Source of the DNA: an uncultured Planctomycetota bacterium
Lineage (GTDB): Bacteria > Planctomycetota > JAJSAM01 > JAKLKS01
DNA: 64,000 nt
Assembly (NCBI GenBank): GCA_964607145.1
Contig: CAZSIX010000002.1
Location: forward strand, 139,989 to 203,988
Direction: 5' to 3'
Part shown: positions 920 through 21,590 of the stretch, in pieces
Layout of the letters: the number at the start of each line of letters is the position of its first letter
Position numbering within the stretch: position 1 is the first letter of the stretch
The notes under the pieces: generated by a model
Databases searched by the model: none
The model's input: the letters and a program-made list of their open reading frames with translations, nothing else
What the model was told of the DNA's origin: nothing
Made by a program: the position numbers and the translations under genes

Positions 920-3121
920 ATGAGCGAAGCGCGCACGCGCCTGGACGGGCTGTTCCGGCCGCGGTCGGTGGCGGTCATCGGCGCGTCCCGCCGGGCCGGG
1001 ACCATCGGGCGGGACCTGCTGCACAACCTCCTCCTGGGGGAGTTCGAGGGGAAGGTCTTCCCCGTCAATCCCCGCGCCGAGGTGGTGCACTCGCTGAAGT
1101 GCTACCCGTCCGTGCTGAGCATCCCCGACCCCATCGACCTCGCCGTCGTCGTCGTCCCCCGCGAGGAGGTGCTCCGCGTCGTGGACGACTGCGGCCGCAA
1201 GGGCGTCCGCGGGGTCGTGGTCATCAGCAGCGGGTTCCGGGAGGTGGGCGAGGAGGGAGTCCGCCGGGAGCGGGCGCTCCTCGACGTGGTGCGCGGGTAC
1301 GGGATGCGGATGGTGGGCCCCAACTGCATGGGGATCCTCAACACCGACCCGGCGGTGCGCCTCGACGCGACCTTCTCGCCCACGGCGGCGCTGCGCGGCA
1401 GCATCGGGTTCCTCTCCCAGTCCGGCGCCATGGGCGTCGCCATCCTCAACCACGCGCGCTCGCTGGGACTGGGGTTCTCCATGTTCGCGTCCATGGGGAA
1501 CAAGGCGGACGTCTCCGGCAACGATCTGCTGCTCTACTGGGAGGACGACCCGGACACCCGGCTCATCCTCATGTACCTGGAGTCCTTCGGCAACCCCCGC
1601 AACTTCATCCCCATCGCGCGCCGCATCACGCGGAAGAAGCCGATCATCGCGGTGAAGTCGGGCCGCACCGTCGAGGGCGCCGCGGCGGCCGCCTCCCACA
1701 CGGGCGCGCTGGCCGGGCCCGACGCGGCGGTGGACGCGCTGCTCTCCCAGTGCGGGATCCTCCGGGCCTCCAGCGTCGAGGACCTGTTCGACATGGCCCT
1801 CGCCTTCGACGGACGGCCGCTGCCCCGGGGCGACCGGGTGGCGCTCCTCACCGACGCCGGCGGTCCCGCCATCATGGCGGTGGATGCGCTCGCCGCCGCC
1901 GGCCTCCGCCCGGCGGCGCTCTCCGCGGAGACGCGCCGCGATCTCGCCCGCGGGCTCAGCCCCGACGCGTCCGTGGCGAACCCCGTGGACATGCTGGGCC
2001 ACGCCACCGGCGACGACTACGCCCGCTGCCTCCGCCGCCTCCTCGCGGACGACGCCGTGGACGCGGTCATCGCGCTCTACGTGCCTCCCGTCATGCACCG
2101 CCCCGTGGAGGTCATCGCCGCCATCTTCGATGCGGCACGGGACCAGCCCGCGGGCGCGGAGAAGCCGGTCCTCTGCGTGTTCATGGCGCGGGAGGAGATC
2201 CTCGACGCGGTGCAGCGGTTCCCCGAGCGGGGGCCGCCGGTCTACCGCTTCCCCGAGTCCGCGGTGCGCGCGCTGGGCGCCCTCGTGCGGTACGCCCGCC
2301 TGCGGGATCGGCCCGAGGGCACGGTGCCCGACCTCGCCGTGGACCGGCCCGCCGCGGCGCGCGTGCTCGACGCCGCCGCGGCGGCGGGCCGGGAGCACCT
2401 GACCGTGGACGAGGCGCGGGAGGTGTTCGAGGCCTACGGCATCCCCTTCGCGCGGTCCGCGACGGTGGCGACGCGGGCCGGCCTGCGGGCCGCCGTGGAG
2501 CGCCTCGGCCTCCCGCTGGTGATGAAGGTGCTCTCCCCGGACGTCGTCCACAAGACCGAGGTCGGCGGCGTCGCCGCGGACCTGCGGACCGCCGCCGAGG
2601 TCGAGGCGGCGTGGGACACCATGACCGAACGCCTCGCCTCCCTCGACCCGCCTCCGCGCGTGGAGGGGGTCCTCCTCCAGGAGATGCGCCGCGGCGCGCA
2701 GGAGATGATCCTCGGCCTCGCCACGGACGCCGTGTTCGGTCCCGTGCTCATGGTGGGCATGGGGGGAGTCACCGTGGAGGTGGCGGGGGACGTCGCCTTC
2801 CGCGTCACGCCGGTGACCGTGGAGGACGTGGACGAGATGATCGCGTCGCTGCGCGGGGCGCGTCTCCTCGGGGCGTTCCGGGGGAGGGAACCGCTCGCCA
2901 CGGGCGCGCTCCGGGACGCGGTGCTCCGGCTGGGTCGGCTGTCCGCCGACTTCCACGGGATCCTCGAGGCGGAGGTGAATCCCTTCATGGTCGCGCCCGG
3001 GGCCGCGGAGACGGTGGCCGTGGACGGGCGCATCCGGATCGCGCCGGACCGGTTCCCCGCCGGGGCCCCCTCCCCGGCGCGCCCCGGAACTCCCGGAATC
3101 TCGTCGGAGGTTCCCCCTTGA
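920..3121 (+). CDS. Acetate--CoA ligase (ADP-forming) family protein: CoA-binding, succinyl-CoA-synthetase-like and ATP-grasp domains
   Basis: 733-aa ORF; N-terminus RSVAVIGASRRAGTIGRDLLHNL (CoA-binding), SQSGAMGVAILNHARSLGLGFS, C-terminal ATP-grasp region PLVMKVLSPDVVHKTEVGGV. Confidence 0.9.
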   Translation: MSEARTRLDGLFRPRSVAVIGASRRAGTIGRDLLHNLLLGEFEGKVFPVNPRAEVVHSLKCYPSVLSIPDPIDLAVVVVPREEVLRVVDDCGRKGVRGVVVISSGFREVGEEGVRRERALLDVVRGYGMRMVGPNCMGILNTDPAVRLDATFSPTAALRGSIGFLSQSGAMGVAILNHARSLGLGFSMFASMGNKADVSGNDLLLYWEDDPDTRLILMYLESFGNPRNFIPIARRITRKKPIIAVKSGRTVEGAAAAASHTGALAGPDAAVDALLSQCGILRASSVEDLFDMALAFDGRPLPRGDRVALLTDAGGPAIMAVDALAAAGLRPAALSAETRRDLARGLSPDASVANPVDMLGHATGDDYARCLRRLLADDAVDAVIALYVPPVMHRPVEVIAAIFDAARDQPAGAEKPVLCVFMAREEILDAVQRFPERGPPVYRFPESAVRALGALVRYARLRDRPEGTVPDLAVDRPAAARVLDAAAAAGREHLTVDEAREVFEAYGIPFARSATVATRAGLRAAVERLGLPLVMKVLSPDVVHKTEVGGVAADLRTAAEVEAAWDTMTERLASLDPPPRVEGVLLQEMRRGAQEMILGLATDAVFGPVLMVGMGGVTVEVAGDVAFRVTPVTVEDVDEMIASLRGARLLGAFRGREPLATGALRDAVLRLGRLSADFHGILEAEVNPFMVAPGAAETVAVDGRIRIAPDRFPAGAPSPARPGTPGISSEVPP

Positions 3122-3171: not shown

Positions 3172-3993
3172 ATGGCCAAGGCGAAGAAGAAGGCCGCGAA
3201 GAAGAAGGCCGTGAAGAAGGCGGCGAAGAAGGCCGCCAAGAAGGTCGCCAAGAAGGTCGCGAAGAAGAAGGTCGCGCGCAAGGTCGCGAAGCCGGCGAAG
3301 AAGAAGGTCGCGAAGAAGGTCGCGAAGAAGAAGGTGGCGAAGAAGGTCGCCCGCAAGCCAGCGGCGAAGAAGCCCGCCGCGAAGAAGCCGGCGGCGAAGA
3401 AGCCGGCGGCGAGGAAGCCCGCCGCACCGCGGCCCGCGGCCGCTCCCGCTCACGCTCCCGCTCCCGCTCCCGCTCCCGCCCCGGCCCCCGTGGCCGCGGC
3501 CCCCGCTCCCGCACCGGCTCCCGCTGCGGAGGCCGCTCCCGCGTCCGACGCCGGCGGCGCCGCGCCCGCCGGGGGCGGATCGGAACCCGTCGCATTACGA
3601 GGACCGGGGGAAGGGGTGGCCGGTCTCGGCCACCTCTTCCTTCCGGTGCCGTCCTTCGACGAGGGCTGGCGCTTCTGGACGGAGGTCCTCGGCCTCCGCG
3701 CCCTGGACTCCTGGGGCGAGGGGGACTCCCGCGCCGGACTCGCCGCCCTCGGCGACGCCCACGTGGTCGTCTCCGCCGAGCCCCCCGCCTTCAGCGAGGA
3801 GACGGGGATGACGGGCCGCCTCGACGCGGCGCAGGTCTGGCTCCGCACCGGCGACGTGGACGCGCTGCACGCGCGGGTCGTCGCGCGCGCCGGCACCGTC
3901 GTCCGCGCCCCCTACCGCACCCACTGGGGCCCCCGCGCCTTCACCGTCGAGGCGCCCGGCGGGCTGCGCGTGGGGATCGCGGAGCAGGGGTAG
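3172..3993 (+). CDS. Lys/Ala-rich histone-H1-like N-terminal tail (KKAAKK repeats then AP repeats) fused to a C-terminal VOC (glyoxalase/bleomycin-resistance/dioxygenase) domain
   Basis: 273-aa ORF; first ~90 residues are AKKK/AAKK repeats, then APAPAPAP, then a VOC-like domain HLFLPVPSFDEGWRFWTEVLGLR...GGLRVGIAEQG. RBS-like GGGAGG upstream. Confidence 0.8.
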   Translation: MAKAKKKAAKKKAVKKAAKKAAKKVAKKVAKKKVARKVAKPAKKKVAKKVAKKKVAKKVARKPAAKKPAAKKPAAKKPAARKPAAPRPAAAPAHAPAPAPAPAPAPVAAAPAPAPAPAAEAAPASDAGGAAPAGGGSEPVALRGPGEGVAGLGHLFLPVPSFDEGWRFWTEVLGLRALDSWGEGDSRAGLAALGDAHVVVSAEPPAFSEETGMTGRLDAAQVWLRTGDVDALHARVVARAGTVVRAPYRTHWGPRAFTVEAPGGLRVGIAEQG

Positions 3994-3999
3994 TCCCCC

Positions 4000-5250
4000 T
4001 TACGCCACCACCCTCCCGTGGTGGACCACGATCTCCGCGTGGTTCACGCCGTGCTCGTAGGGGAGCAACCGGTGGTCGGGGACGTCGAGGATCACCAGGT
4101 CCGCCCGCATGCCGGGCACCAGGGCGCCGACCTCGTCGCCGAGGCCGAGGGAGCAGGCGGCGTTGCGCGTGGCCGCCACCAGCGCCTCCGCCGCGGAGAG
4201 GTGCAGCCCCACGCAGCCGATGGCGATGGCCTGCTGGAGGCTGGGCAGCATGGAGGAGCCGGGGTTGCAGTCCGTGGCCAGGGCCACGGGCACGCCGGCC
4301 TCGATGAGGCGGCGCGCGGGCGCGAACCGGCGCATGCCGAGGAAGAAGGACGTCCCCGGGAGCAGCACCGCCACCGTGTCCGACCGGGCCAGGGCGGCGA
4401 TGCCCGCGTCGCCCACCTCGAGGAGGTGATCCGCCGACGCGCAGCCGAGTTCCGCCGCCAGCGCCGCCCCGCCGCCGTCGGAGAGTTCGTCGGCGTGGAT
4501 GCGCAGCCCGAGGCCGTGGGCCCGCGCCGCGGAGAGGATCCGGCGGGACTGGTCCACGGTGAAGTAGCCGGCCTCGCAGAACACGTCGCAGTACTGCGCC
4601 AGGCCCCGGGCGGCGACGACGGGGATCATCTCCTCCGCCACCAGGCGCGTGTAGTCGTCGGCGCGGCCCCGGTACTCCTCAGGCACCGCGTGGGCGCCGA
4701 GGAACGTCGGCACGAGGTCGCCCCCGTCGTCCAGCGCGATCACCACCGCCAGCGCGCGGACCTCCTCGTCGAGCGTCAGCCCGTAGCCGGACTTCACCTC
4801 CATGGTGGTCGTCCCGTGGAGGAGCGCGCGCCGCCGGAGCCCGCGCGCGCGATCCAGCAGCGCGTCGTCGGAGGCGGCCCGGTGGGAGCGCACGGAGGAG
4901 AGGATCCCCCCGCCCGCGGCGGCGATCTCCTGGTAGGTCGCTCCCAGGCAGCGCCGCTCGAACTCCCCCTCGCGCGTGGCGGCGAACACGAGGTGCGTGT
5001 GGGCGTCCACGAGCCCCGGGATCACCGCCCGCCCGGCGGCGGAGATCTCGTGGGCCGGCTGGAAGACGCGGCGCAGTTCGTCGCTGGGACCCACCGCGAG
5101 GACCCGTCCCCGCCCGCACGCGACGGCGGCGTCGCGGACGGTGCCGGTCTCCCCCTGCTCCCGGCCGCGGCGGGGGCCGGGTACGCCGCCCGCCATGGTG
5201 AGGACCTCCGTCGCCGAGTGGACGAGGAGGTCGCAGGGGACGCGGTTCAT
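4000..5250 (-). CDS. hutI: Imidazolonepropionase
   Basis: Start taken at MNRVPCDLLVHSATEVLTMAG (ATG rc 5248-5250). PGLVDAHTHLVF, metal-binding HxH and DCNPGSS motifs typical of HutI. Start overlaps upstream ORF stop by ATGA. Confidence 0.9.
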   Translation of the reverse strand: MNRVPCDLLVHSATEVLTMAGGVPGPRRGREQGETGTVRDAAVACGRGRVLAVGPSDELRRVFQPAHEISAAGRAVIPGLVDAHTHLVFAATREGEFERRCLGATYQEIAAAGGGILSSVRSHRAASDDALLDRARGLRRRALLHGTTTMEVKSGYGLTLDEEVRALAVVIALDDGGDLVPTFLGAHAVPEEYRGRADDYTRLVAEEMIPVVAARGLAQYCDVFCEAGYFTVDQSRRILSAARAHGLGLRIHADELSDGGGAALAAELGCASADHLLEVGDAGIAALARSDTVAVLLPGTSFFLGMRRFAPARRLIEAGVPVALATDCNPGSSMLPSLQQAIAIGCVGLHLSAAEALVAATRNAACSLGLGDEVGALVPGMRADLVILDVPDHRLLPYEHGVNHAEIVVHHGRVVA

Positions 5251-5540
5251 GGCTGCGGCGGACGGCGGCGCGGCTTGCGGGCGGGGGGGTCCTTCGCCGG
5301 GAGTTCGTCGACCACCTCGCGCAGCCCCGCCAGCGTGGTGGGGGAGAGCGTGAGGCCGACGTGTCCGCAGCCGAGGCACACCATGCCCTGCACGGCGAAG
5401 TCGTGGAAGCGCGAGCCGGGGGCCTCCACGAGGAGCACCGACGAGTTCGGGTGGGCGCTGGTGCGCATGGGGGCCGGCCCGAAGAGCCGGGAACTCCTGC
5501 AGAACGGGCAGCGCGGGCCCGGGGTGCGGCTGGTGCTCAT
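5247..5540 (-). CDS. Small zinc-ribbon protein (CxxC...CxxC), paralog of the adjacent ORF, embedded in the hut operon
   Basis: [17 protein letters not shown]...VCLGCGHVGLTLSP; ATG at 5538-5540 overlaps upstream stop (ATGA); its stop overlaps the hutI start (ATGA). Confidence 0.6.
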   Translation of the reverse strand: MSTSRTPGPRCPFCRSSRLFGPAPMRTSAHPNSSVLLVEAPGSRFHDFAVQGMVCLGCGHVGLTLSPTTLAGLREVVDELPAKDPPARKPRRRPPQP

Positions 5541-5803
5541 GGCGATTCCTCTCCCGCCGGGTCGTCCCCGCCGTCGTCCTCCGCTCCGTCCTCCGCCGCC
5601 GGGCGCCTCCCCGGCATCCGGTCGCTCACCTTGCGCCGCGGCTTCCGGTAGAGGTGCACGAAACCGCAGACGGCGCACGCGAACCCGACCAGCGGGTCCC
5701 CGAACCAACCGAAGGTGGCGGGCACGTAGCCGTGGATGTCCTTCGGGGCGGTGAACTCCGTGGCCCCGCAGGAGAGGCACTTCGGCGGGCGCTGCGCGCT
5801 CAC
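5537..5803 (-). CDS. Small zinc-ribbon protein (CxxC...CxxC), embedded in the hut operon
   Basis: GTG at 5801-5803 overlaps the hutU TGA (GTGA); [17 protein letters not shown]...[15 protein letters not shown] then acidic tail. Same frame as junk ORF 5537..7528 but only this segment looks protein-like. Confidence 0.55.
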
Positions 5804-7491
5804 GGCGCGCCCCCCGCGGAGGCCGCCGGCAGCATGGGGATGCGGACCCCCCGCTCCCGCGCCGTCCGCACCGCCTCCGGGTAGCCGGCGTCGGCGTGGC
5901 GCGCGACGCCCGTGCCCGGATCGGCCGTGAGCACGCGCTGGAGGCGCGAGTCCATCTCCGGCGTCCCGTCGGCGCAGACGACCATGCCCGCGTGCTGCGC
6001 GTAGCCGATGCCCACGCCGCCGCCGTGGTGGATGGAGACCCAGGTGGCGCCGGCGGCGGTGTTCACCAGCGCGTTCAGGAGGGGCCAGTCGGCCACCGCG
6101 TCGGTGCCGTCGCGCATGGACTCCGTCTCCCGGTTGGGGGACGCGACGGAGCCGGAGTCGAGGTGGTCGCGGCCGATGACCACGGGCGCCGAGAGTTCCC
6201 CGTCGCGGACCATGCGGTTGAACTCCAGCCCGGCGCGTGCGCGCTCGCCGTACCCGAGCCAGCAGATGCGCGCGGGGAGGCCCTGGAACGCGACCCGCTC
6301 GCCGGCGAGCCGGATCCAGCGGGCCAGCGGGCGGTCCTCCGGGAACAGCCGCAGGATGGCCTCGTCGGTGCGGCGGAGATCCGCGGGGTCGCCGGAGAGC
6401 ACCGCCCACCGGAAGGGACCCTTCCCCTCGCAGAAGAGCGGCCGGATGTAGGCGGGCACGAACCCGGGATACGCGAAGGCGTCGGCGAAGCCCTCCTCCT
6501 TCGCGAAGCCGCGGAGGTTGTTCCCGTAGTCGAAGGTCGCCGCGCCGCGCCGCTGGAGTTCCACCATGGCGCGGCAGTGGTCGACGATGGTCCGCCGGGA
6601 CTCCCGCTCGCAGCGGGCCGGGTCGGATCGCCGCAGCGCCAGCGCGTCCGCCAGCGGCAGGCCGTCGGGGACGTACCCGTTCAGGGGATCGTGCGCGCTG
6701 GTCTGGTCCGTGAGGAGATCCGGGACGACGCCGCGGTCCAGCAGCCGCCGGAGGAGCGTCGTGGCGTGCGCCTCCACCGCCACGGAGAGCGGCTCGCCCC
6801 GCTCGCGCGCCGCCAGCGCGCGGTCGATGCCCTCGTCCAGCGAGGGCGCCCGCTCGTCGAGGTAGCGCGTGTGGAGGCGCTTCGCGATGCGCGCGGGATC
6901 CACCTCCGCGGCGAGGCAGGCGGCGCCGTTCATGGTGGCCGCCAGCGGCTGCGCGCCGCCCATGCCGCCCAGCCCCGCGGTCACGACGAGCCGCCCCTCC
7001 AGCGAGTCGGCGCCGAAGTGCTTCCGGCCCGCCGCCGCGAACGTCTCGTAGGTGCCCTGGAGGATCCCCTGCGTGCCGATGTAGATCCACGACCCCGCGG
7101 TCATCTGGCCGAACATCATCAGCCCGCGGGACTCCAGTTCCCGGAAGTGCTCCCACGTGGCCCAGCGTCCCACGAGATTGCTGTTGGCGATGAGGACGCG
7201 GGGCGCGTGCGCGTGGGTGCGGAACACCGCCACGGGCTTGCCGGACTGCACCAGCAGCGTCTCGTCGTCGCGGAGATCGCGGAGCGTCGCCAGGATGGAC
7301 TCCAGGCACGCGCGGTCGCGCGCGGCGCGGCCGGATCCGCCGTAGACCACCAGCCGCTCCGCGTCCTCCGCCACCTCCGGGTCGAGGTTGTTGAGGAGCA
7401 TGCGGTAGGGCGCCTCCGTCTGCCAGGAGCGGCAGTGGAGGGTGGTCCCGCGGGGAGCGGGACCCGGCGTCCACGGGGGGGCCGCGGTCAT
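5800..7491 (-). CDS. hutU: Urocanate hydratase
   Basis: 563 aa from MTAAPPWT; [13 protein letters not shown] and [12 protein letters not shown] motifs; ATG overlaps the hutH stop (ATGA at 7488-7491). Confidence 0.95.
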
Positions 7492-9092
7492 CGCGCCCCC
7501 TTCGCCGCGGCGCGCCGGCGCCGCGCACGGGCCGGCCCCCCGTCGCCGAGCCCCGCCAGCGGGCCCGCGGCCCGCTCCGCCGCCGCCACGAGGCTCCCGT
7601 CCCGCACCATGCCCGCGAGCGTCTCCAGGTCCCCCGCGGGGGACGCGTCCCCGGTGCGCCGGGGCACGTCGCGACGGAGGCGGGCCAGCGCGGCGCCGGT
7701 CCCGCGGCCCGGGGCGAGGCCGTCCAGGTGGGCCATCCCCTCGGCGGCGCAGAGCAGTTCGCAGGCGAGCACGCGCTCCGCGTTGGCGACCACGTCGAGC
7801 AGTTTCCGCGCCGCGTGAGTCCCCATGGACACGTGGTCCTCCTGGCCGGCGCTCGTCGGGAGGGAGTCCACGGAGGCGGGATGGGACAGAACCCGGTTCT
7901 CCGCCACCAGCGCGGCGGCGGTCACCTGGACGATCATGTACCCGGAGTGCAACCCCCCCTCGGCGGCGAGGAAGGGCGGCAGCCCCCCGTTCAGGTCGGG
8001 GTTCACGAGCGACTCCGTGCGCCGCTCGCTGATGGAGGCGATCTCCGCGGTGGCCATGGTGGCGTAGTCGAACGCCAGGGCCAGCGGCTCGGCGTGGAAG
8101 TTCCCGGCGGAGACGACCTCCACCGCGCCGCCGGGGAACAGCAGCGGGTTGTCGGTCACGCTGTTGGCCTCCCGGAGCGCCACGGCGAGGGCGTGGGAGA
8201 GGGCGTCCCGGGCGGCGCCGTGGACGACGGGCGCGCAGCGCAGCGAGTAGGCGTCCTGGAGGCGGCCGTGGGGGCGGCGGTGGGAGGGGGGCACGGCGGA
8301 GCCCCGCAGCAGCCGGCGCATGTTGGAGGCGACGACGGCCTGGCCCGGGTGGGGGCGGAGCGCGTGGACCTCCGGCCGGAGGGGACGGAGGGATCCGCGC
8401 AGCGCCTCGTGGGTGAGCGCGCAGGCGACGTCGGCGGCGCGGACGAGGCCGTCGGCGCGGGCCAGCGCCGCCAGCCCGATGGCGTTCGTCACCTGCGTCC
8501 CGTTGACGAGACAGAGGGCGTCCTTGGGACCGGGGCGGGCGGGGCGGATCCGCGCCGCGCGGAGCGCCGCCGCGCCGGGGAGGCGGACGCCCCGGTGCTC
8601 CGCGGTCCCCTCCCCGATGAGCACCAGCGCCATGTGGGCCAGGGGCGCGAGGTCCCCGGACGCGCCCACGGACCCCTGCGACGGGACCACCGGCGTCACC
8701 CCGCGGTCGTAGAGCCGGAGCAGCAGGTCCAGCAGCGAGGGCGTGATGCCGCTGTGCCCGCTGGCCAGGGTGTTGGCGCGCAGCGCCATGGCGAGGCGCA
8801 CCACCTCCCGCGGGAGCGGCGCGCCGACGCCGGCCGCGTGGGAGCGGAGCAGGTTCACCTGGAGTTCGCCCAGGCGCTCCCTCGGCACCGCCACGTGCTG
8901 GAGGCGGCCGAAGCCCGTGGACACGCCGTACACCGACCGCCCCTCGTCCACGATGCGATCCACCAGCCGCGCCGCCCTCTCCACCGCGCGGCGCGCGCCG
9001 GACGACAGGCCGATACGCGTGACGGAACCGTCGAGCACGCCCCGCACGGCGGCCAGGTCGATGCTCCGCCCGTCCAGGACCAGCGTTCCCAT
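7488..9092 (-). CDS. hutH: Histidine ammonia-lyase
   Basis: 534-aa ORF; [16 protein letters not shown] (MIO-forming ASG motif) and overall HAL architecture. Confidence 0.95.
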
Positions 9093-9204
9093 GCCTTCGC
9101 ATCCTACCCCGCGCTCCCCGGCGCCCTCCGCGGTCCCGCGGCGTCCCCGTCCGCGGACGGACTGCGCCCCCGCGCCCCCTTCCCGCTACGATGCCGCTCC
9201 CCCC

Positions 9205-11557: not shown

Positions 11558-13015
11558 CTAGCGAACTCTCAGCTCGACCGCCTCAGCCCGATCGAACGGA
11601 CTCCCATCACCAACCTCATAGAAGTAGTTCGATCCCCACGCGAGCCAGGCTCCTTCAATATCAGTAGCGTGAGCCCCCGTGTCACCGGTGAAGAGTTCCA
11701 CAACCCCGCTCACAGTCGTCCGAACAGGGTAAGCGCGATGGGCGAACGACCCATCGCAGAGTTCGCCCCGCGAGTTGCTTCCCCAACCGAACAGCGCTCC
11801 TTGCGAATCTAGCGCATATCCAGAGTCAAACCCTGCCGCAATGCGTACGATACTGCGAAGACCCACAACGCTGCCCGGAGTCAAACGACTGACCTGAGTT
11901 CCATCTCCCAGCTGACCAAACGCATTCGAGCCCCAGGTGAACACCTCACCGCTGTCGCTGAGCACCAATGAGAACTGACCGCGTGCCGCAACGGCGACCG
12001 CGGTTGGGATTCCCGGAACGCCAACCGGGGTCCACCGATCCTCCGTTGCTCCGTCCCCAAGCTGGCCGGCCCCGTTCCACCCCCATGCGAGAACCGCGCC
12101 GCCGTTCAGGAGTGCCACGTTGTGCTGGTTGCCGACCGCGAGCGCGCGAATGCCGTCTAGCGCGGGAACGCGGATCGGTCGAACGCGAGGGCTATCGGTA
12201 CCATCGCCCAAGTTTCCTCTGGCGTTGCCTCCCCACGCAAAGACCTCTCCTGCGGCAGTTACGGCGAAAGACGTAAAAAAACCCGCTGAAACCGCAATCG
12301 GATCCCGAACCTCCGGAACAGGTTCGGGTACGACGCTGGGAGCACCGTCCATGAACCCATCGTGGTCCCCCCAGAACAGGAGCGTTCCATCATCCCGGAT
12401 CGCGAGGAGATGCTCTCCCCCGGCCGCGATGGTAACGATGCGCGAGAAGCCCTCCAGCGGCACCGGGCGCGTCTCGTAGTACGGATAGCCCTCACCGTAG
12501 GGTCGCGACTCGTTTCGCGCAAAGGACGCGGGGTACTCACCCCAGAAGCGGAGCGTTCCATCGGACATGCGCGCAACCCCGAACTCCGTTCCGAACTGCA
12601 CGTCGCTCACTCGCGGAACGACATCAATCCGGCGTGACTTTGAGATGACTCGACTGTCAGCCGTCCTAACCCGCACGCGCACGTCTTCGTGGACCTCGGT
12701 GGGGCTCCAGTTGAACTGGGCAGTGCGGGCGCTCTCCGTTCCGAGAATGTCCCAGGTCAGCCCCGAGTCTCTGGACGCTTCCACAACGACGATCTCGCCC
12801 CCGACCCCTTGCGCCTTCCACTCGACCGTTGCAACCCTTCCCACCGGCCACAGTTCGTGATTTCGCGGCTCACGCAGCATGATCTTGCCGAAGGCCCCTG
12901 TTGGATCGTCAGAGTTATTGCGGCCACAGCCGGGCAGCACGAGCCCAAACTGAAGCACAACAGAAACCAGAACGACCGCAGCGCAACGCGCACGACTGAG
13001 CGACAACGCCGACAT
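11558..13015 (-). CDS. RCC1-repeat (beta-propeller) lipoprotein
   Basis: MSALSLSRARCAAVVLVSVVLQFGLVLPGCG (lipobox); several repeats of the type WGWNGAGQLGDG, WGSNAFGQLGDG, WGGNARGNLGDG. Nucleotide composition and codon use are clearly lower in GC than the flanks. Confidence 0.85.
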   Translation of the reverse strand: MSALSLSRARCAAVVLVSVVLQFGLVLPGCGRNNSDDPTGAFGKIMLREPRNHELWPVGRVATVEWKAQGVGGEIVVVEASRDSGLTWDILGTESARTAQFNWSPTEVHEDVRVRVRTADSRVISKSRRIDVVPRVSDVQFGTEFGVARMSDGTLRFWGEYPASFARNESRPYGEGYPYYETRPVPLEGFSRIVTIAAGGEHLLAIRDDGTLLFWGDHDGFMDGAPSVVPEPVPEVRDPIAVSAGFFTSFAVTAAGEVFAWGGNARGNLGDGTDSPRVRPIRVPALDGIRALAVGNQHNVALLNGGAVLAWGWNGAGQLGDGATEDRWTPVGVPGIPTAVAVAARGQFSLVLSDSGEVFTWGSNAFGQLGDGTQVSRLTPGSVVGLRSIVRIAAGFDSGYALDSQGALFGWGSNSRGELCDGSFAHRAYPVRTTVSGVVELFTGDTGAHATDIEGAWLAWGSNYFYEVGDGSPFDRAEAVELRVR

Positions 13016-13311
13016 CCGTGCGCATGCGCGTCGCGCACCCGCGCCAGACGCTGGCCATCGATGCGGCATATTGCCGCGCCGAGTCATCGAGGAACTCAAG
13101 CGGCTGCCGCACAGGCCCAAGCTACACGGCACAGTGTCGGGATACGGTGTCAGTCTCCCACGTGGTTTCCGCGGTGCGTTCACTCCGCGACGGGGCCCCG
13201 CGAAGGCAGCGCAACCCGGGAACAGCCGGACCGGCTCCGAACGGCGGAGCGGACGGGGGTGCCGACTCTCTCCGTCTCCCACCCACCGCCGCCGCACGCC
13301 GGCACGACCCC

Positions 13312-14091
13312 CTACCGCACCGTCCTGATCTGCAGCACCAGCGCGGCGTTGGAGATGCCGGGGACGTCGGCGAGGCCGGCCACGGTGAAGGTGCAGCGGG
13401 AGCCGCGGGCTCCGCCGAGGGGCTCGGGGAGGGGGCGCCAGGGGACGAGGGAGTCGGGGAGCGGGACGGGGACGCCGTCGCGGAGGAACCGGACGCGGTA
13501 GAGGAGGGCCCGCGGCGGGGCGTCGGGGCGGGCCGTCTGGTCGGTGTTCTCCAGGGTGATGGTCACGGTGGGGTCGCGGTCGGTGGTGTCCCGCTGGAGG
13601 GCGACGCACTCCACGGACCACCCGAGGAAGCAGGTGCCGGGCCATCCGTCGGCGCGGGCCACGAGGGTGCGTCCGTGGGGGGCCATGGTGAGGCGCGAGA
13701 ACAGGGGCCGATCGCCGGCGCCGCGGAGGGAGACGGAACCGGCGCGGGTCTCGCCGGGCGCCACGTCCTCCCACTCCACGTGGTCGAAGTGGAACGGCCG
13801 GTAGGGCGCGTCGAAGCCGGCGGCGGGGGCGGGGAAACCGAGTTCGACGTCCACGTCCAGCAGTTCCAGGGAGGCGGCGCCCTCGTTGGCCACGACGAAC
13901 TCGACGCGGCCGCCGTCGTCGTGGAAGTGGTTCTGGAGTTCGCGCACCACCACCCGCCCCCCGGGTCCGAGGCGGTCGCCGACGCCGGTCTGGAGCGCCG
14001 CGGGGTCGACGGTCCCGCCCACGCCGGCGCAGCCGGCGGCCACCGCCGCCGCCACGAGGGGGAGGGTGGCCCGGATCCAGGCGGGGTTCAC
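13312..14091 (-). CDS. Hypothetical lipoprotein
   Basis: GTG start overlaps the NUDIX stop (GTGA); VNPAWIRATLPLVAAAVAAGCAG signal/lipobox; last gene of the ispH-NUDIX operon. Confidence 0.6.
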   Translation of the reverse strand: MNPAWIRATLPLVAAAVAAGCAGVGGTVDPAALQTGVGDRLGPGGRVVVRELQNHFHDDGGRVEFVVANEGAASLELLDVDVELGFPAPAAGFDAPYRPFHFDHVEWEDVAPGETRAGSVSLRGAGDRPLFSRLTMAPHGRTLVARADGWPGTCFLGWSVECVALQRDTTDRDPTVTITLENTDQTARPDAPPRALLYRVRFLRDGVPVPLPDSLVPWRPLPEPLGGARGSRCTFTVAGLADVPGISNAALVLQIRTVR

Positions 14092-15807: not shown

Positions 15808-16053
15808 ATGAGCGGCAAGAAGGGGTTCCTGGTGTTCGCGGCGGTGGCGGGTCTGCTCTCGGCGGGGGCGGTCGGGTGCGCCTCCAAGGGCGATCACCAC
15901 GGCGAGAAGAAGGACGACTCGAAGATGGAGAAGAACTCCTGCAAGGGCGGCGGCAAGTGCAAGGAGGGCGGGAAGTGCAAGTCCGGCGGACAGTGCAAGG
16001 AAGGCGGCAAGTGCAAGGCCGGCGGCGGCTGCGGCAAGAACTCCTGCGGCTAG
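15808..16053 (+). CDS. Small secreted/lipoprotein Cys-rich repeat peptide (GG[KQ]CK repeats); candidate RiPP precursor for the adjacent MNIO
   Basis: MSGKKGFLVFAAVAGLLSAGAVGCAS (signal peptide, lipobox) then KGDHHGEKKDDSKMEKNSCKGGGKCKEGGKCKSGGQCKEGGKCKAGGGCGKNSCG; GGAGG RBS 9 nt upstream of ATG 15808; located 57 nt before the DUF692 gene. Confidence 0.75.
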   Translation: MSGKKGFLVFAAVAGLLSAGAVGCASKGDHHGEKKDDSKMEKNSCKGGGKCKEGGKCKSGGQCKEGGKCKAGGGCGKNSCG

Positions 16054-16110
16054 ACGATCCCACGGCATGACCGGGACGCCGGGGGCCCCGCCTCCGGCGT
16101 CCCTCCCGCC

Positions 16111-16965
16111 ATGATCGCCAACCGATTCGGCCTCCCGGACCTCGGGTTCGGCGTGGGGCTCCGCCCGACGCACTACGCCCACGTCCTCTCGACGTGGCCG
16201 GCGGTGGACTTCTTCGAGATCATCTCGGAGAACTACATGGACCAGGGGGGGCGGCCGCGGGAGGCGCTGGAGGCGGTGGCCGCGCGCTACCCCGTCGTCA
16301 TGCACGGCGTGTCGCTGTCCATCGGGTCCACGGATCCCCTGGACATGGACTACCTCCGCCGCCTGCGGGCGCTGGCGGATCGCATCGACGCGCCCTGGCT
16401 GAGCGACCACCTCTGCTGGACCGGCGTGGCGGGGGAGAACCTCCACGACCTGATGCCCGTGCCCCGGACCGAAGAGGCGGTGCGCCACATCCGCGACCGG
16501 GTGCGGCGCGTCCAGGACTTCCTCGGGCGGCCGCTCCTGCTGGAGAACCCCTCCTCGTACATGGGCTTCGCCGCCGACGCCATGCCCGAGGCGGAGTTCC
16601 TGGCCCGCATCGCCGAGGGCGCCGACTGCGCCCTCCTGCTGGACGTGAACAATGTCCACGTGAGCGCGCGGAACCACGGGTTCGACCCGGAGGCGTACAT
16701 CCGCACGCTCCCCCTGGACCGCGTCGTGCAGTTCCACCTCGCCGGCCACGAGGACCACGGGGCGTACATCATCGACACGCACGACGCGCACGTCGTGGAC
16801 GCCGTGTGGGACCTCTTCCGGCGCACCTGGGCGCTGACGGGGCCCCGCGCGACGCTGGTGGAGTGGGACGACCACATCCCGCCCTTCGAGGTCGTGCACG
16901 CGGAGGCGGAGCGCGCCCGCGCGGAGGCGGCGGCGTCCCCGGCGGAGGGCGCCGTTGCCCGGTAG
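16111..16965 (+). CDS. DUF692 family protein (multinuclear non-heme iron oxidative enzyme, MbnB/TglH/BufB-like)
   Basis: 284 aa; [42 protein letters not shown] motifs typical of DUF692/MNIO TIM-barrel proteins. Confidence 0.9.
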
Positions 16966-17770
16966 GGAGGGGCGCGACGGGGCCCTCGACGGGCTGGAGC
17001 GCTGGGTGCGGGACGTCGTGACCGCGCCCGCGGACCCCGACGGCGCGGAGGCGGGGCGCGTCCTCGCCCCCCTCCCGGGCCTCCCCCCGGCGGAGCAGTT
17101 GCGGATCTACCGGGACGGCTGGTTCTCGCGGCTCCGCTCGGCGCTGGCGGAGGACTTCCCGGGCCTCGAGCACGCCCTCGGCCACCACGGGTTCGACCAC
17201 CTCTGCGCCGACTACCTGCGCGCCCACCCGTCCTCGTACACCGACATCTGCCGCGTGGGCGTGGACATGGAGCGGTTCGTGCGGTCCCGGACGGACCTCG
17301 CCGACGTCGGGTTCCTCGCCGACCTGGCGCGACTGGAGTGGTCCGTCACGTCGGTCTTCGACCGCGCCGACGGCCCGGTGCTGCGGGTCGCCGATCTCGA
17401 GGGGACGGACACGGAGACGCTCGCCGCCGCCCGCTTCCCCCTGGCGTCCACCACGGACCTCCTGGACCTGGGGTACCCGGTGCACGAGTACCTGGAGGCC
17501 GTCCTCGCCGAGGGGTCGCCGGCGGTTCCCGCGCCGCGGCCCTGCACCGTCGTCGTCTCCCGCGCCGGGACCGCCATGAGCCGGATGGAGGTCGCCGGCC
17601 CCCTCGTCCCCGTGCTGCGGGCGCTGGCGGAGGGCGCGTCGCTGGAGGAGGCGGTCGGCACCGCCGCGGAGTGCGCGGAGGACGACGCGGCGCTGGAAGC
17701 CCTGGCGGTGGCGATGCGGGACGGGTTCGCGCGCTGGGTCGGGGCGGGCGTGTTCGCGCCGACGGGGTAG
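16955..17770 (+). CDS. DUF2063 family protein (MbnC/BufC-like partner of the MNIO)
   Basis: 271 aa; overlaps the DUF692 gene by 11 nt; N-terminal region typical of DUF2063 (LQRWV-like, [19 protein letters not shown]). Confidence 0.8.
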
Positions 17771-19421: not shown

Positions 19422-21590
19422 TCAGAACTCGAGGGTGAGGGTCAGGACGAGGCCCCGGCCGGCGCCGTTGACCCCCGACCCGTGGAAGCGGTAGTCCCGG
19501 TTGAGGACGTTCTCCACGGCCAGGTCGAGGCGCGCCGCCGCCCCCAGGCGGAGCCCCCCGCGGATGTGGAGAACGCCGAAGCCGGGGGTCCCTCCGTCCG
19601 GGATGCGCGTGTCGGCGGCGTCGGCGGACGAGAGCCGGTCCTGCCCGTCGGCGGCGACGAACACCGCCTCGATGTACCAGCGGCGCTCCGTGCCCGACTC
19701 GTGGCGGAGCCACAGGGCCCCGAAGGTCGGCGGGATCTTCGAGAGCGGCTCGCCGGTGTCGCGGTGGGTGCCCCGGGTGAAGGTGATGTTGCCGCCGGTG
19801 CTGAAGCCGCCTCCGAGCAGCACGCGGAGGTCCGCTTCGAGTCCGTCGATGCGGGCCGTGCCGACGTTCCCGCGCGTGGTGTACGCCCGCCCCGAGCCGT
19901 CGGTGGCGGCGCCGCCGTAGGTCGTGGGGACCCGGTCGATGAGGTCGCGGAGGTGGGAGCGGTACCACGTGACGCCGCCGGAAACGCGATCCCGCTCCGC
20001 GCGCAGACCCATCTCCCATTGCGTGAGCGTCTCCGGATCGAGATCGCGGGCGGGCACGTCGAAGGAGGTGGAGGTGACCTGGAAGACGGTCAGGTCCTCC
20101 ACGTTGGGGGCGCGGAAGCCGCGGGAGATCCCGGTGTAGGCGCGGAAGCCGCCGCCGAGATCCCCGTGGAGGTGCGCGGCGCCGGTGACGTCGGAGAACG
20201 ACTCGGAGAAGTCCGCCAGGGGCGTGGCGTCGGAGGGATCGGGATCCACGTCCCGCGCGTCGATGCGGAAGCGGCTGGCCCGCACCCCCGCCACGGCGCG
20301 CAGGCGATCCGTGAGCCGGGCCTCGTCCTGCACGTACGCCCCCGCCGACGTGTAGGTCGCGGAGCCCGCGAAGGTCCCCCGGTCGAAGTCCGTGCGCGCG
20401 CCCGTCGTCACGTCCGTCCTCACGCGGTCGCTGGAGACGGAGTCGCGGTACCACTCGAGGCCCCAGGAGATCCGGTGCGCCTCGTGCGGGACGGTGGTGG
20501 CGCGCACCACGACCCCCGGCGTCGTCACGTCGTCGTTGGTGCGGTCCAGGTTGTCGCTGCCCGTGCGCCGCTCGAAGCGGCGCTCCGTCTGGCGGTGCAG
20601 GCTGACGGTGGTCTCCACCGCGCGCAGCAGGTCGGAACTCCCCTCCGCGCGGAGGGTCGCCGCGACGAGGTCCCGCTCCTGCTCCTCGATGCGCCAGACC
20701 GCGTTGCGCGTGCTGCCCGTTCCCCGCCAGCCGGTCACGAGGAACTGGGGGCGACGGACTCCCTCCTGCCGGACGTGCTGGGCCACGAGGTCGAGGGACC
20801 GCCCCTCTCCCAGGGCGAGGCGCGCCGCCATGTCGCCGTCGGTCTCGTCGTACCCCGTGAAGGGCTGCGTGTCCACGTGACGCCCGCCGCGGAGATCGCC
20901 GAAGGCGCCGATGCTCCCGCCGGCGAGCAGGCCGAGACCGGTGCTCCGCACGTTCCCCTCGATGCGGAGCCGCTCCGAGTCCTCGGCGGTGGCGTCCCGG
21001 TACGCGAGGCGCCCGCCCGCCGTGGCCGCGCCCTCCGCCAGCGGCTCCGCGCGCCGCGTGAGGACGCGCACGACGCCGCCTAGGGCGTCGCTCCCGTAGA
21101 GCACCGACGACGGGCCGCGGACCACCTCGATGCGTTCCACGGTCTCGACGTCCACCGTGGCCAGGTACTGGTTGGGGCCGCCCCGGTAGGTGGAGTTGTT
21201 GAGGCGCACGTCGTCGATCATGAGCAGCGTCTGCTTGCCGATGAGCCCGCGGAGGATGGGGGAGCCCTGCCCGTGGGTGGTCTTCTGGACGAAGATCCCG
21301 ACCTCCTCCAGCAGCGCCTCGGGGACGTTGCGGGACTGCCGATCGAGGATCTCCCGGCGGTCCACCACGGTCACGGCGAAGGGAACGTCGCCGACGGCGG
21401 CGCGCGTGGAGGTGGCGGTGACCTGGACCTCCGGGACCAGCGCCGCCTCGGGCTCCGGGGGCGGCGGATCCTCCGCCGGCGAAGGGGCGGGGAGGGGCGG
21501 TGGCGCGTCCTGGGCCAGGCCCGCGGGCGGGTCCGCCGCGAGGGCGGCGGCGGCGAGGAACAGGGGCAGGACGGGGCGGCGTCGATGCAT
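19422..21590 (-). CDS. TonB-dependent outer-membrane receptor
   Basis: 722 aa; signal peptide, plug domain (LLMIDDVRLN...RIEVVRGPSSVLYGSDALGGVV), C-terminal beta-barrel ending in aromatic residue (LTLEF). Confidence 0.9.
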   Translation of the reverse strand: MHRRRPVLPLFLAAAALAADPPAGLAQDAPPPLPAPSPAEDPPPPEPEAALVPEVQVTATSTRAAVGDVPFAVTVVDRREILDRQSRNVPEALLEEVGIFVQKTTHGQGSPILRGLIGKQTLLMIDDVRLNNSTYRGGPNQYLATVDVETVERIEVVRGPSSVLYGSDALGGVVRVLTRRAEPLAEGAATAGGRLAYRDATAEDSERLRIEGNVRSTGLGLLAGGSIGAFGDLRGGRHVDTQPFTGYDETDGDMAARLALGEGRSLDLVAQHVRQEGVRRPQFLVTGWRGTGSTRNAVWRIEEQERDLVAATLRAEGSSDLLRAVETTVSLHRQTERRFERRTGSDNLDRTNDDVTTPGVVVRATTVPHEAHRISWGLEWYRDSVSSDRVRTDVTTGARTDFDRGTFAGSATYTSAGAYVQDEARLTDRLRAVAGVRASRFRIDARDVDPDPSDATPLADFSESFSDVTGAAHLHGDLGGGFRAYTGISRGFRAPNVEDLTVFQVTSTSFDVPARDLDPETLTQWEMGLRAERDRVSGGVTWYRSHLRDLIDRVPTTYGGAATDGSGRAYTTRGNVGTARIDGLEADLRVLLGGGFSTGGNITFTRGTHRDTGEPLSKIPPTFGALWLRHESGTERRWYIEAVFVAADGQDRLSSADAADTRIPDGGTPGFGVLHIRGGLRLGAAARLDLAVENVLNRDYRFHGSGVNGAGRGLVLTLTLEF

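Follow-up and report, generated by a model that had tools for sequence, protein, structure and literature searches.

Two small genes predicted to encode zinc ribbons are coupled to hutU and hutI in the histidine utilization operon of an uncultured Planctomycetota bacterium

Histidine utilization (Hut) is a textbook catabolic system, and its enzymes are thought to need no helpers. The canonical operons have the layout hutPHUIGM in Bacillus and hutUHIG in Pseudomonas and Klebsiella, the latter with hutC, and with hutF where the five-step route is used. Here we analyze a hut operon carried by a 64,000-nucleotide stretch of DNA (contig CAZSIX010000002.1 of GenBank assembly GCA_964607145.1; hereafter the window) from an uncultured Planctomycetota bacterium. 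It resembles the canonical operons in that hutH, hutU and hutI are found at equivalog level in one co-directional operon. It differs from them by two extra small open reading frames (ORFs) between hutU and hutI, both predicted to encode zinc ribbons and called here ORF1 and ORF2, and by the lack of hutG, hutF, a HutC or HutP regulator and a transporter. What is new is that two well-delimited protein families without a name in the databases are inserted in the operon of a known pathway. The conserved and coupled pair, with a constraint on ORF1 at the level of urocanase, means that at least one lineage, known only from metagenomes and uncultured bacteria, has added a component to the segment leading from urocanate through imidazolonepropionate to formiminoglutamate.

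The order hutH-hutU-ORF1-ORF2-hutI on the minus strand, as given in a preliminary description of this DNA, agrees with the coordinates and with the equivalog scores (Table 1), HutH, HutU and HutI all scoring above their NCBIfam cutoffs. HutU falls below the cutoffs for thiourocanate hydratase and is therefore an ordinary urocanase. Both HutU and HutI are canonical in end-to-end alignments with PDB entries 1x87 and 2bb0, respectively. A convergent VOC/glyoxalase gene lies 7 nt beyond the end of hutI and two GT4 glycosyltransferase genes diverge from hutH, so the operon consists of exactly five genes. The four junctions proposed at the outset can be read directly from the sequence: ATGA at 7488-7491 (hutH/hutU), GTGA at 5800-5803 (hutU/ORF1), ATGA at 5537-5540 (ORF1/ORF2) and ATGA at 5247-5250 (ORF2/hutI). 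One length had to be corrected: ORF2 encodes 97 amino acids (294 nt including the stop) and not 99.

Table 1. Genes of the hut operon and segments of the two small proteins in the window
Feature	Position	Strand	Evidence and remarks
hutH, histidine ammonia-lyase, 534 aa	7488-9092	minus	Pfam Lyase_aromatic 600 bits; NCBIfam TIGR01225 609 bits (cutoff 539)
hutU, urocanate hydratase, 563 aa	5800-7491	minus	TIGR01228 900 bits (cutoff 375)
ORF1, 88-aa predicted Cys4 zinc-ribbon protein, GTG start overlapping the hutU stop	5537-5803	minus	Homologue clusters, codon-model score
ORF1 conserved core, residues 9-56	5636-5779	minus	Knuckles C9xxC12 and C43xxC46
ORF1 variable tail	5540-5635	minus	Basic patch KPRRK, then Gly/Asp/Glu-rich tail
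ORF2, 97-aa predicted Cys4 zinc-ribbon protein, basic	5247-5540	minus	Homologue clusters, alignments, AlphaFold 2 model
ORF2 conserved core, residues 11-66	5343-5510	minus	Knuckles C11xxC14 and C55xxC58
ORF2 segment resembling the Fur hairpin plus helix, residues 33-79, sub-threshold	5304-5444	minus	hmmsearch, hhalign
hutI, imidazolonepropionase, 416 aa, start overlapping the ORF2 stop	4000-5250	minus	TIGR01224 427.5 bits (cutoff 298)

The pair is present between hutU and hutI in every close homologue for which flanking DNA is available, that is, in 14 of 14 distinct contigs in addition to the window. All 14 contigs belong to Planctomycetota metagenome-assembled genomes (MAGs) or environmental metagenomes, and a wider synteny (LytB-NUDIX-GT4-GT4-hut) is common to the window and several of these relatives. 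No further copy of either ORF was found within the 64-kb window. This strict association with hutU and hutI is observed directly, as are the genes themselves, their conservation and coupling, and the FtcD genes of the relatives described below.

The stop/start overlaps are kept together with the gene order. An NTGA overlap joins hutU to ORF1 in 12 of 12 loci, ORF1 to ORF2 in 7 of 7 and ORF2 to hutI in 7 of 7, in support of the tight translational coupling that had been proposed for the operon. The hutH/hutU junction varies between loci, and the coupled module is therefore hutU-ORF1-ORF2-hutI. Four-nucleotide overlaps are common in this genome: they occur in 10 of the 41 same-strand neighbour pairs in the window, and in 6 of 37 outside the hut operon. 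Four in a row are thus notable and not exotic. Judged from the sequences of the relatives, the retention of the overlaps around the two small genes nevertheless exceeds chance.

Shine-Dalgarno motifs of the GAGG/GGAG type precede the starts of ORF1 and ORF2, the latter in all seven loci, and the final codons of the ORF1 tail form the GAGGA-type motif for ORF2. The hutI start has no Shine-Dalgarno motif of its own in the window, and none is present in 6 of 7 loci overall. The synthesis of HutI should therefore depend on ribosomes that terminate on ORF2. Coupling on both sides combined with strong Shine-Dalgarno motifs would imply an abundance of the two small proteins that is enzyme-like rather than regulator-like.

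Because the GC content of the window is about 76 %, long spurious ORFs abound on both of its strands, and one could ask if the two mini-ORFs are artefactual open frames as well. The chance of this is negligible. ORF1 and ORF2 have 30 and 55 homologue clusters, respectively, with invariant cysteines and loop residues, those of ORF2 having been recovered by a profile search; both score positively in a codon-usage model trained on the window, their start/stop overlaps are conserved, and their cores evolve with a ratio of non-synonymous to synonymous substitution (dN/dS) of 0.2-0.5. Conservation and a coding pattern in relatives, the check that the preliminary description had named for the two ORFs, are thus found for both.

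The homologues of ORF1 are 64-84 % identical to it and all between 76 and 103 amino acids long. Their alignment contains 25 invariant columns, including a run that starts with D-I, and the core holds a 30-residue loop with a near-invariant stretch of 17 residues. The spacer between the knuckles is 30 amino acids in 29 of 29 sequences, and exactly four cysteines are found in 29 of 30. To place this conservation on a common scale, pairwise codon comparisons were made among seven loci, with frames placed by tblastn coordinates. The ORF1 core (dN/dS 0.21, 87 % amino acid identity) equals hutU, the most conserved gene of the operon (0.21, 86 %), and is under stronger constraint than hutI (0.31, 77 %) or hutH (0.34, 74 %). 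The Gly/Asp/Glu tail of ORF1 has a mean charge of -3.8 and is free to vary in sequence (0.94, 35 %).

The ORF2 core is less constrained (dN/dS 0.48, 65 % identity) and has a fixed architecture of its own. Its knuckles are separated by 40 amino acids in 50 of 50 sequences, exactly four cysteines occur in 48 of 51, and the 40-residue loop reads RTSAHPNSS..LVE.PG..FHD. The residues P24, R26, T27, H30, P31, S33, E39, G42, D47, C55, C58 and G59 are invariant, and His46 is conserved in at least 90 % of the sequences. The family is strongly basic, with a mean isoelectric point (pI) of about 10 and an Arg/Lys tail of charge +5.

Neither ORF1, ORF2 nor any other member of the two families exceeds a Pfam or NCBIfam cutoff. 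The matches below the cutoff are all to zinc-ribbon or rubredoxin-like families (RUBY_RBDX, zf-ChsH2, Zn_ribbon_13, Zn_Ribbon_TF), which for ORF2 refers to the 25 commonest of 39 families. Both proteins have the two CxxC knuckles and the conserved cysteines of Cys4 zinc ribbons, and in both AlphaFold 2 (AF2) models strands flank the second knuckle. The models are beta-hairpin zinc ribbons with a mean confidence (predicted local distance difference test, pLDDT) of 65 for ORF1, whose tail is disordered (pLDDT below 50), and of 79 for ORF2, which has five strands and a helix at residues 67-79. We conclude from the sequences and the models that ORF1 and ORF2 are predicted Cys4 zinc-ribbon proteins, as first suggested from their cysteines. 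The structure prediction that had been put forward as a further check yielded zinc ribbons, and Foldseek searches of the PDB with both models returned only generic zinc ribbons at E > 0.7. A profile search of the PDB sequences with ORF1 gave no match. The conserved loops are the lowest-confidence part of both models, which fits segments that become ordered on a partner.

We hypothesize that ORF1 and ORF2 are stoichiometric accessory proteins for HutU and HutI, serving metal loading or assembly, and assign this reading a probability of roughly 0.4. The exclusive placement between hutU and hutI, the coupling on both sides and the match of the ORF1 core to urocanase in constraint all speak for it, as does the position of the possible metal site of ORF2, whose gene immediately precedes hutI, which encodes a mononuclear Zn/Fe amidohydrolase. 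According to this hypothesis the overlaps would keep both proteins, translated from the hut mRNA, at a constant ratio to urocanase and imidazolonepropionase, and the two would bind to proteins and assist the pathway between HutU and HutI. The zinc ribbon would serve as a compact, rigid support from which a single long, largely invariant loop of fixed length (30 or 40 residues) is displayed. The pair may supply HutI with its single Zn/Fe ion or keep that ion in place, may hold HutU and HutI together, or may do both.

In a more specific form of this proposal, a heterodimer of ORF1 and ORF2 physically joins urocanase and imidazolonepropionase or inserts metal into the latter; we consider this form possible and on the doubtful side. 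If it holds, no dedicated accessory protein of the "stand-alone" Hut enzymes would have been described before this pair, and a metal hairpin of the Fur type would have found a second use in a protein that is not a transcription factor. Loading of the HutI metal or bridging of the enzymes would add a case to the small proteins that tune metabolic enzymes and a link between histidine catabolism and metal homeostasis. Such a link has a precedent in Acinetobacter, which requires the metallochaperone ZigA to use histidine when zinc is limiting (PMC10269061).

The possible metal site rests on a resemblance of ORF2 to the metal-binding hairpin of Fur. Searching the PDB with the ORF2 profile (hmmsearch) returned two Fur chains with E values of 0.07 and 0.5, below significance for a database of this size. 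Direct comparison with E. coli Fur by hhalign gave a probability of 75 % and a pairwise E of 2.6e-5 over 42 columns (ORF2 33-79, Fur 75-116); the Fur query matches the part of the sequence displayed in the PDB alignment. The controls gave 0.8 % (ORF1 against Fur) and 0.5 % (ORF2 against NrdR). The aligned segment comprises, in this order, a strand, a Glu, a turn, H-x-H-D-(H), a strand, C-L-x-C-G, a strand and a helix. E39, H46 and D47 of ORF2 are aligned to E81, H88 and D89 of V. cholerae Fur, which we take to be ligands of the two Fur metal sites (2W57). With His30, Glu39, His46 and Asp47 placed right before the second knuckle in an order that resembles the Fur hairpin, ORF2 may have a second, exchangeable His/Glu/Asp metal site, as this arrangement of residues suggests.

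The differences from Fur are considerable. ORF2, at 97 amino acids, has no N-terminal winged-helix DNA-binding domain, the alignment contains a 4-residue insertion, and the other cysteine pair is N-terminal in ORF2 and C-terminal in Fur. The Pfam family FUR is not among the 25 commonest of the 39 sub-threshold families for ORF2.

Two described systems offer functional parallels to the accessory role. The nickel metallochaperone HypA/HybF is a small protein that has, besides a Cys4 zinc ribbon with a structural role, its own His/Glu site for the metal (Ni), and it serves one metalloenzyme that is encoded nearby. It has no match in sequence or fold to ORF1 or ORF2 and the analogy is functional only. 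DUF35 proteins carry an N-terminal rubredoxin-like zinc ribbon and bridge thiolase and HMG-CoA synthase. Sub-threshold matches to zf-ChsH2 in 21 of 30 ORF1 members and 20 of 51 ORF2 members recall this family; all are under the cutoff, and unlike DUF35 proteins ORF1 and ORF2 have no OB-fold domain. In one described complex, a DUF35 protein joins the thiolase ACAT and HMG-CoA synthase as the third partner (PMC12960953).

Several points weigh against an accessory role. HutU and HutI work alone in other bacteria, and the end-to-end alignments with 1x87 and 2bb0 contain no clade-specific insertion or docking segment in either enzyme. The similarity to Fur is not significant at the scale of the database (E 0.07), and a match to a small heat-shock protein scores equally, which shows the level of noise; conservation does not extend to the Fur-like His44 and His48, both of which the ORF2 of the window lacks. 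That the two proteins bind the enzymes, that ORF2 has a second metal site and that the pair acts as chaperone or scaffold is what we infer. Many of the zinc ribbons matched by Foldseek (E > 0.7) are nucleic-acid binders, with which the very basic ORF2 (pI about 10, Arg/Lys tail) is also compatible. No HutC- or HutP-type regulator was seen near any of these operons, leaving the role of regulator unfilled.

The region upstream of hutH was compared between loci. In seven relatives (L001, L002, L005, L007, L009, L010 and L017) an otherwise unconserved leader contains a conserved, C/T-rich CCTTCCTCCCTCCC box, located about 20 nt upstream of GTA(CC/GG)ATG, a -10-like element. The leader of the window (9093-9204) keeps TAGGAT (9101-9106), lacks the CCTTCCTCCCTCCC box and has a 14-nt palindrome, CCGTCCGCGGACGG, instead. 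These leader elements may be a promoter or an operator. The Rfam scan of the window returned one tRNA only and no riboswitch near hut.

The main rival to the accessory role is that the pair regulates the operon, at the level of transcription or translation. Here the basic ORF2 would bind nucleic acid, ORF1 with its acidic tail would be its partner or antagonist, and the system would respond to histidine, urocanate or a metal. Zinc ribbons commonly bind nucleic acids, and the nearest folds (RNA polymerase subunits, NrdR, Rpp21, MqsA-N), though all at E > 0.7, point in this direction. So do the opposite charges of the two tails (+5 for ORF2, whose mean pI is 10, and -3.8 for ORF1), the vacancy for a HutC/HutP-type regulator near every locus and the conserved C/T-rich box upstream of hutH in relatives; a Fur-like metal hairpin would suit metal sensing. 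We nevertheless regard regulation as rather unlikely. Genes in the middle of the operon, with strong Shine-Dalgarno motifs and coupled to enzymes on both sides, would be translated in roughly equimolar amounts, which is unusual for a regulator. Neither protein has a recognisable DNA-binding domain, the winged helix of Fur being absent, the Arg-rich tails can be put down in part to a GC content of 76 %, and the C/T-rich box is missing from the promoter region of the window itself.

A different explanation is that the pair has a general cellular role, for example in stress adaptation, and merely uses the hut promoter. In the archaeon Haloferax, many small zinc-finger proteins consist of one domain with two C(P)xCG motifs and have pleiotropic roles (PMC6562870, PMC10716476). 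These micro-proteins provide a parallel, and neither ORF1 nor ORF2 has a demonstrated feature that is specific to an enzyme. Such hitch-hiking is at odds with the exclusive and invariable placement between hutU and hutI in 14 loci and with the conserved overlaps. It is also at odds with the restricted distribution of the family, which was found nowhere else among 1.84 billion representatives: an exhaustive HMMER search of these with the ORF1 profile returned a single 50 %-identity cluster and two generic zinc-ribbon matches. From this search the ORF1 family appears confined to this lineage. We therefore consider hitch-hiking improbable.

The preliminary description had placed the two ORFs in the position of hutG and had considered that they might be part of a non-canonical last step, that is, that the pair performs or enables the conversion of formiminoglutamate to glutamate in place of HutG or HutF. 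We confirmed that neither HutG nor HutF follows hutI: tblastn with FTCD and Pfam scans of about 45 predicted proteins revealed no hutG (arginase family), hutF, N-formylglutamate amidohydrolase or ftcD in the window, which covers 64 kb of a 204-kb contig from an incomplete MAG. FtcD is the glutamate formimidoyltransferase-cyclodeaminase (EC 2.1.2.5/4.3.1.4) that removes the formimino group in a folate-dependent manner, as in mammals and some anaerobes. Six relatives that also carry the two ORFs (L001, L002, L010, L017, L037 and L038) encode a bifunctional FtcD, which follows hutI at a distance of 64 nt to 5.4 kb; they make up 6 of the 8 distinct related loci with enough downstream sequence. One other species, represented by L007 and L035, has no FTCD within 6.7 kb.

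Pfam recognizes FTCD_N, FTCD and FTCD_C in these FtcD proteins, and scoring of two of them (L001 and L017) with the NCBIfam equivalog gave 370-377 bits (cutoff 221). These six relatives encode the enzyme of the folate-dependent route; the window differs from them in having no ftcD, which in this genome is presumably encoded outside the window. Gene content predicts that the last step in this lineage is done by folate-dependent FtcD with no need for HutG or HutF. With FtcD next to hutI in relatives, a non-canonical last step becomes unnecessary. The ORFs moreover lie before hutI and not after it, so they do not occupy the last-step position, and a zinc ribbon of 88 or 97 amino acids is an unlikely hydrolase. 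Taken together, a replacement of HutG or HutF by the pair is highly improbable. Of the three roles suggested in the preliminary description, assembly factor and regulator are still candidates, and a part in the last step is disfavoured.

The two ORFs had further been described as paralogous. The CxxC...CxxC architecture and the knuckles are indeed common to both, and paralogy itself is weakly supported: BLASTP aligned ORF1 and ORF2 with an E value of 0.025 over 29 residues, and hhalign gave a probability of 14 % (E 0.002, 54 columns), with the knuckles in register and loops that differ in length and sequence.

Other small Cys4 proteins, among them Zn_ribbon_13 (DUF2082), have the same succession of knuckle, loop of about 30-40 residues and knuckle, and the same second knuckle, C-x2-C-G-[YF]-V-H-L-[YF]. 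Zn_ribbon_13 weakly matches 18 of 30 ORF1 members (the best at E 0.01, the ORF1 of the window at 12.7 bits and E 0.15), in no case reaching the 23-bit cutoff, and for ORF2 this family is not among the 25 commonest of 39 sub-threshold families. The loop sequences are unrelated and those proteins are encoded outside hut operons.

The second-knuckle motif of ORF1 is also found in Actinomycetota proteins. Weak tblastn matches in Actinomycetota and freshwater metagenomes (L011, L012, L019-L034) were rejected: they share only the knuckle CxxCG[YF]VHL[YF] and lie outside a hut context, and the match in L019 is a chance match within a membrane protein. Ten of these sequences (L011, L012, L020, L024-L027, L030-L032) represent a separate, widespread Actinomycetota zinc-ribbon family of about 80 amino acids without hut context. 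Its motif, FRCxxCxxxxFFDREVKLNTTGAELFDLGWANQSATGLVCAQCGYVHLF, has only the second knuckle in common with ORF1. We found no paper linking urocanase or imidazolonepropionase with a zinc ribbon; the lone literature match for "COG3478" deals with a urate oxidase and has no bearing on these proteins.

Downstream of the hut operon, the protein encoded by the convergent VOC/glyoxalase gene (3172-3993, plus strand) has a Lys/Ala-rich, histone-H1-like N-terminus of about 140 residues followed by PAPAPA repeats. In the relatives L002 and L038 a plain glyoxalase-domain protein of 138-156 amino acids is encoded a few kb downstream of hutI. The window further encodes, at 920-3121 on the plus strand, an ADP-forming acyl-CoA ligase of the acetate/4-hydroxybutyrate-CoA ligase type (586 bits, under the equivalog cutoff), and related genes are found near hut in L010 and L035.

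On the other side of the operon, between the GT4 genes and NUDIX/LytB, an RCC1-repeat protein (11558-13774, minus strand; WD40_RLD 255 bits) is encoded in an island of 63 % GC compared with about 76 % for the genome. The same place holds nothing or a DinB gene in L001 and L005, and the RCC1-repeat gene was probably acquired horizontally. In L001 only, a HicB-like (UPF0150)/HicA toxin-antitoxin pair (4180-4637) is located between the GT4 genes and hutH. At one contig end (L010, 1-70), long stretches of poly-G and poly-C look like an assembly artefact.

Farther along the window, the region 15808-17770 (plus strand), together with 19422-21590 (minus strand), resembles a bufferin-type cluster for a ribosomally synthesized and post-translationally modified peptide, with a TonB-dependent receptor nearby. 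The putative precursor has 81 amino acids, a lipoprotein-like signal peptide and repeated GGKCK cysteine motifs, and is followed by an enzyme of the MbnB/TglH/ChrH type (DUF692/MNIO, E 1e-110) and a DUF2063 partner. The layout of the 15808-17770 cluster matches that of copper-binding bufferin systems (PMC11626156).

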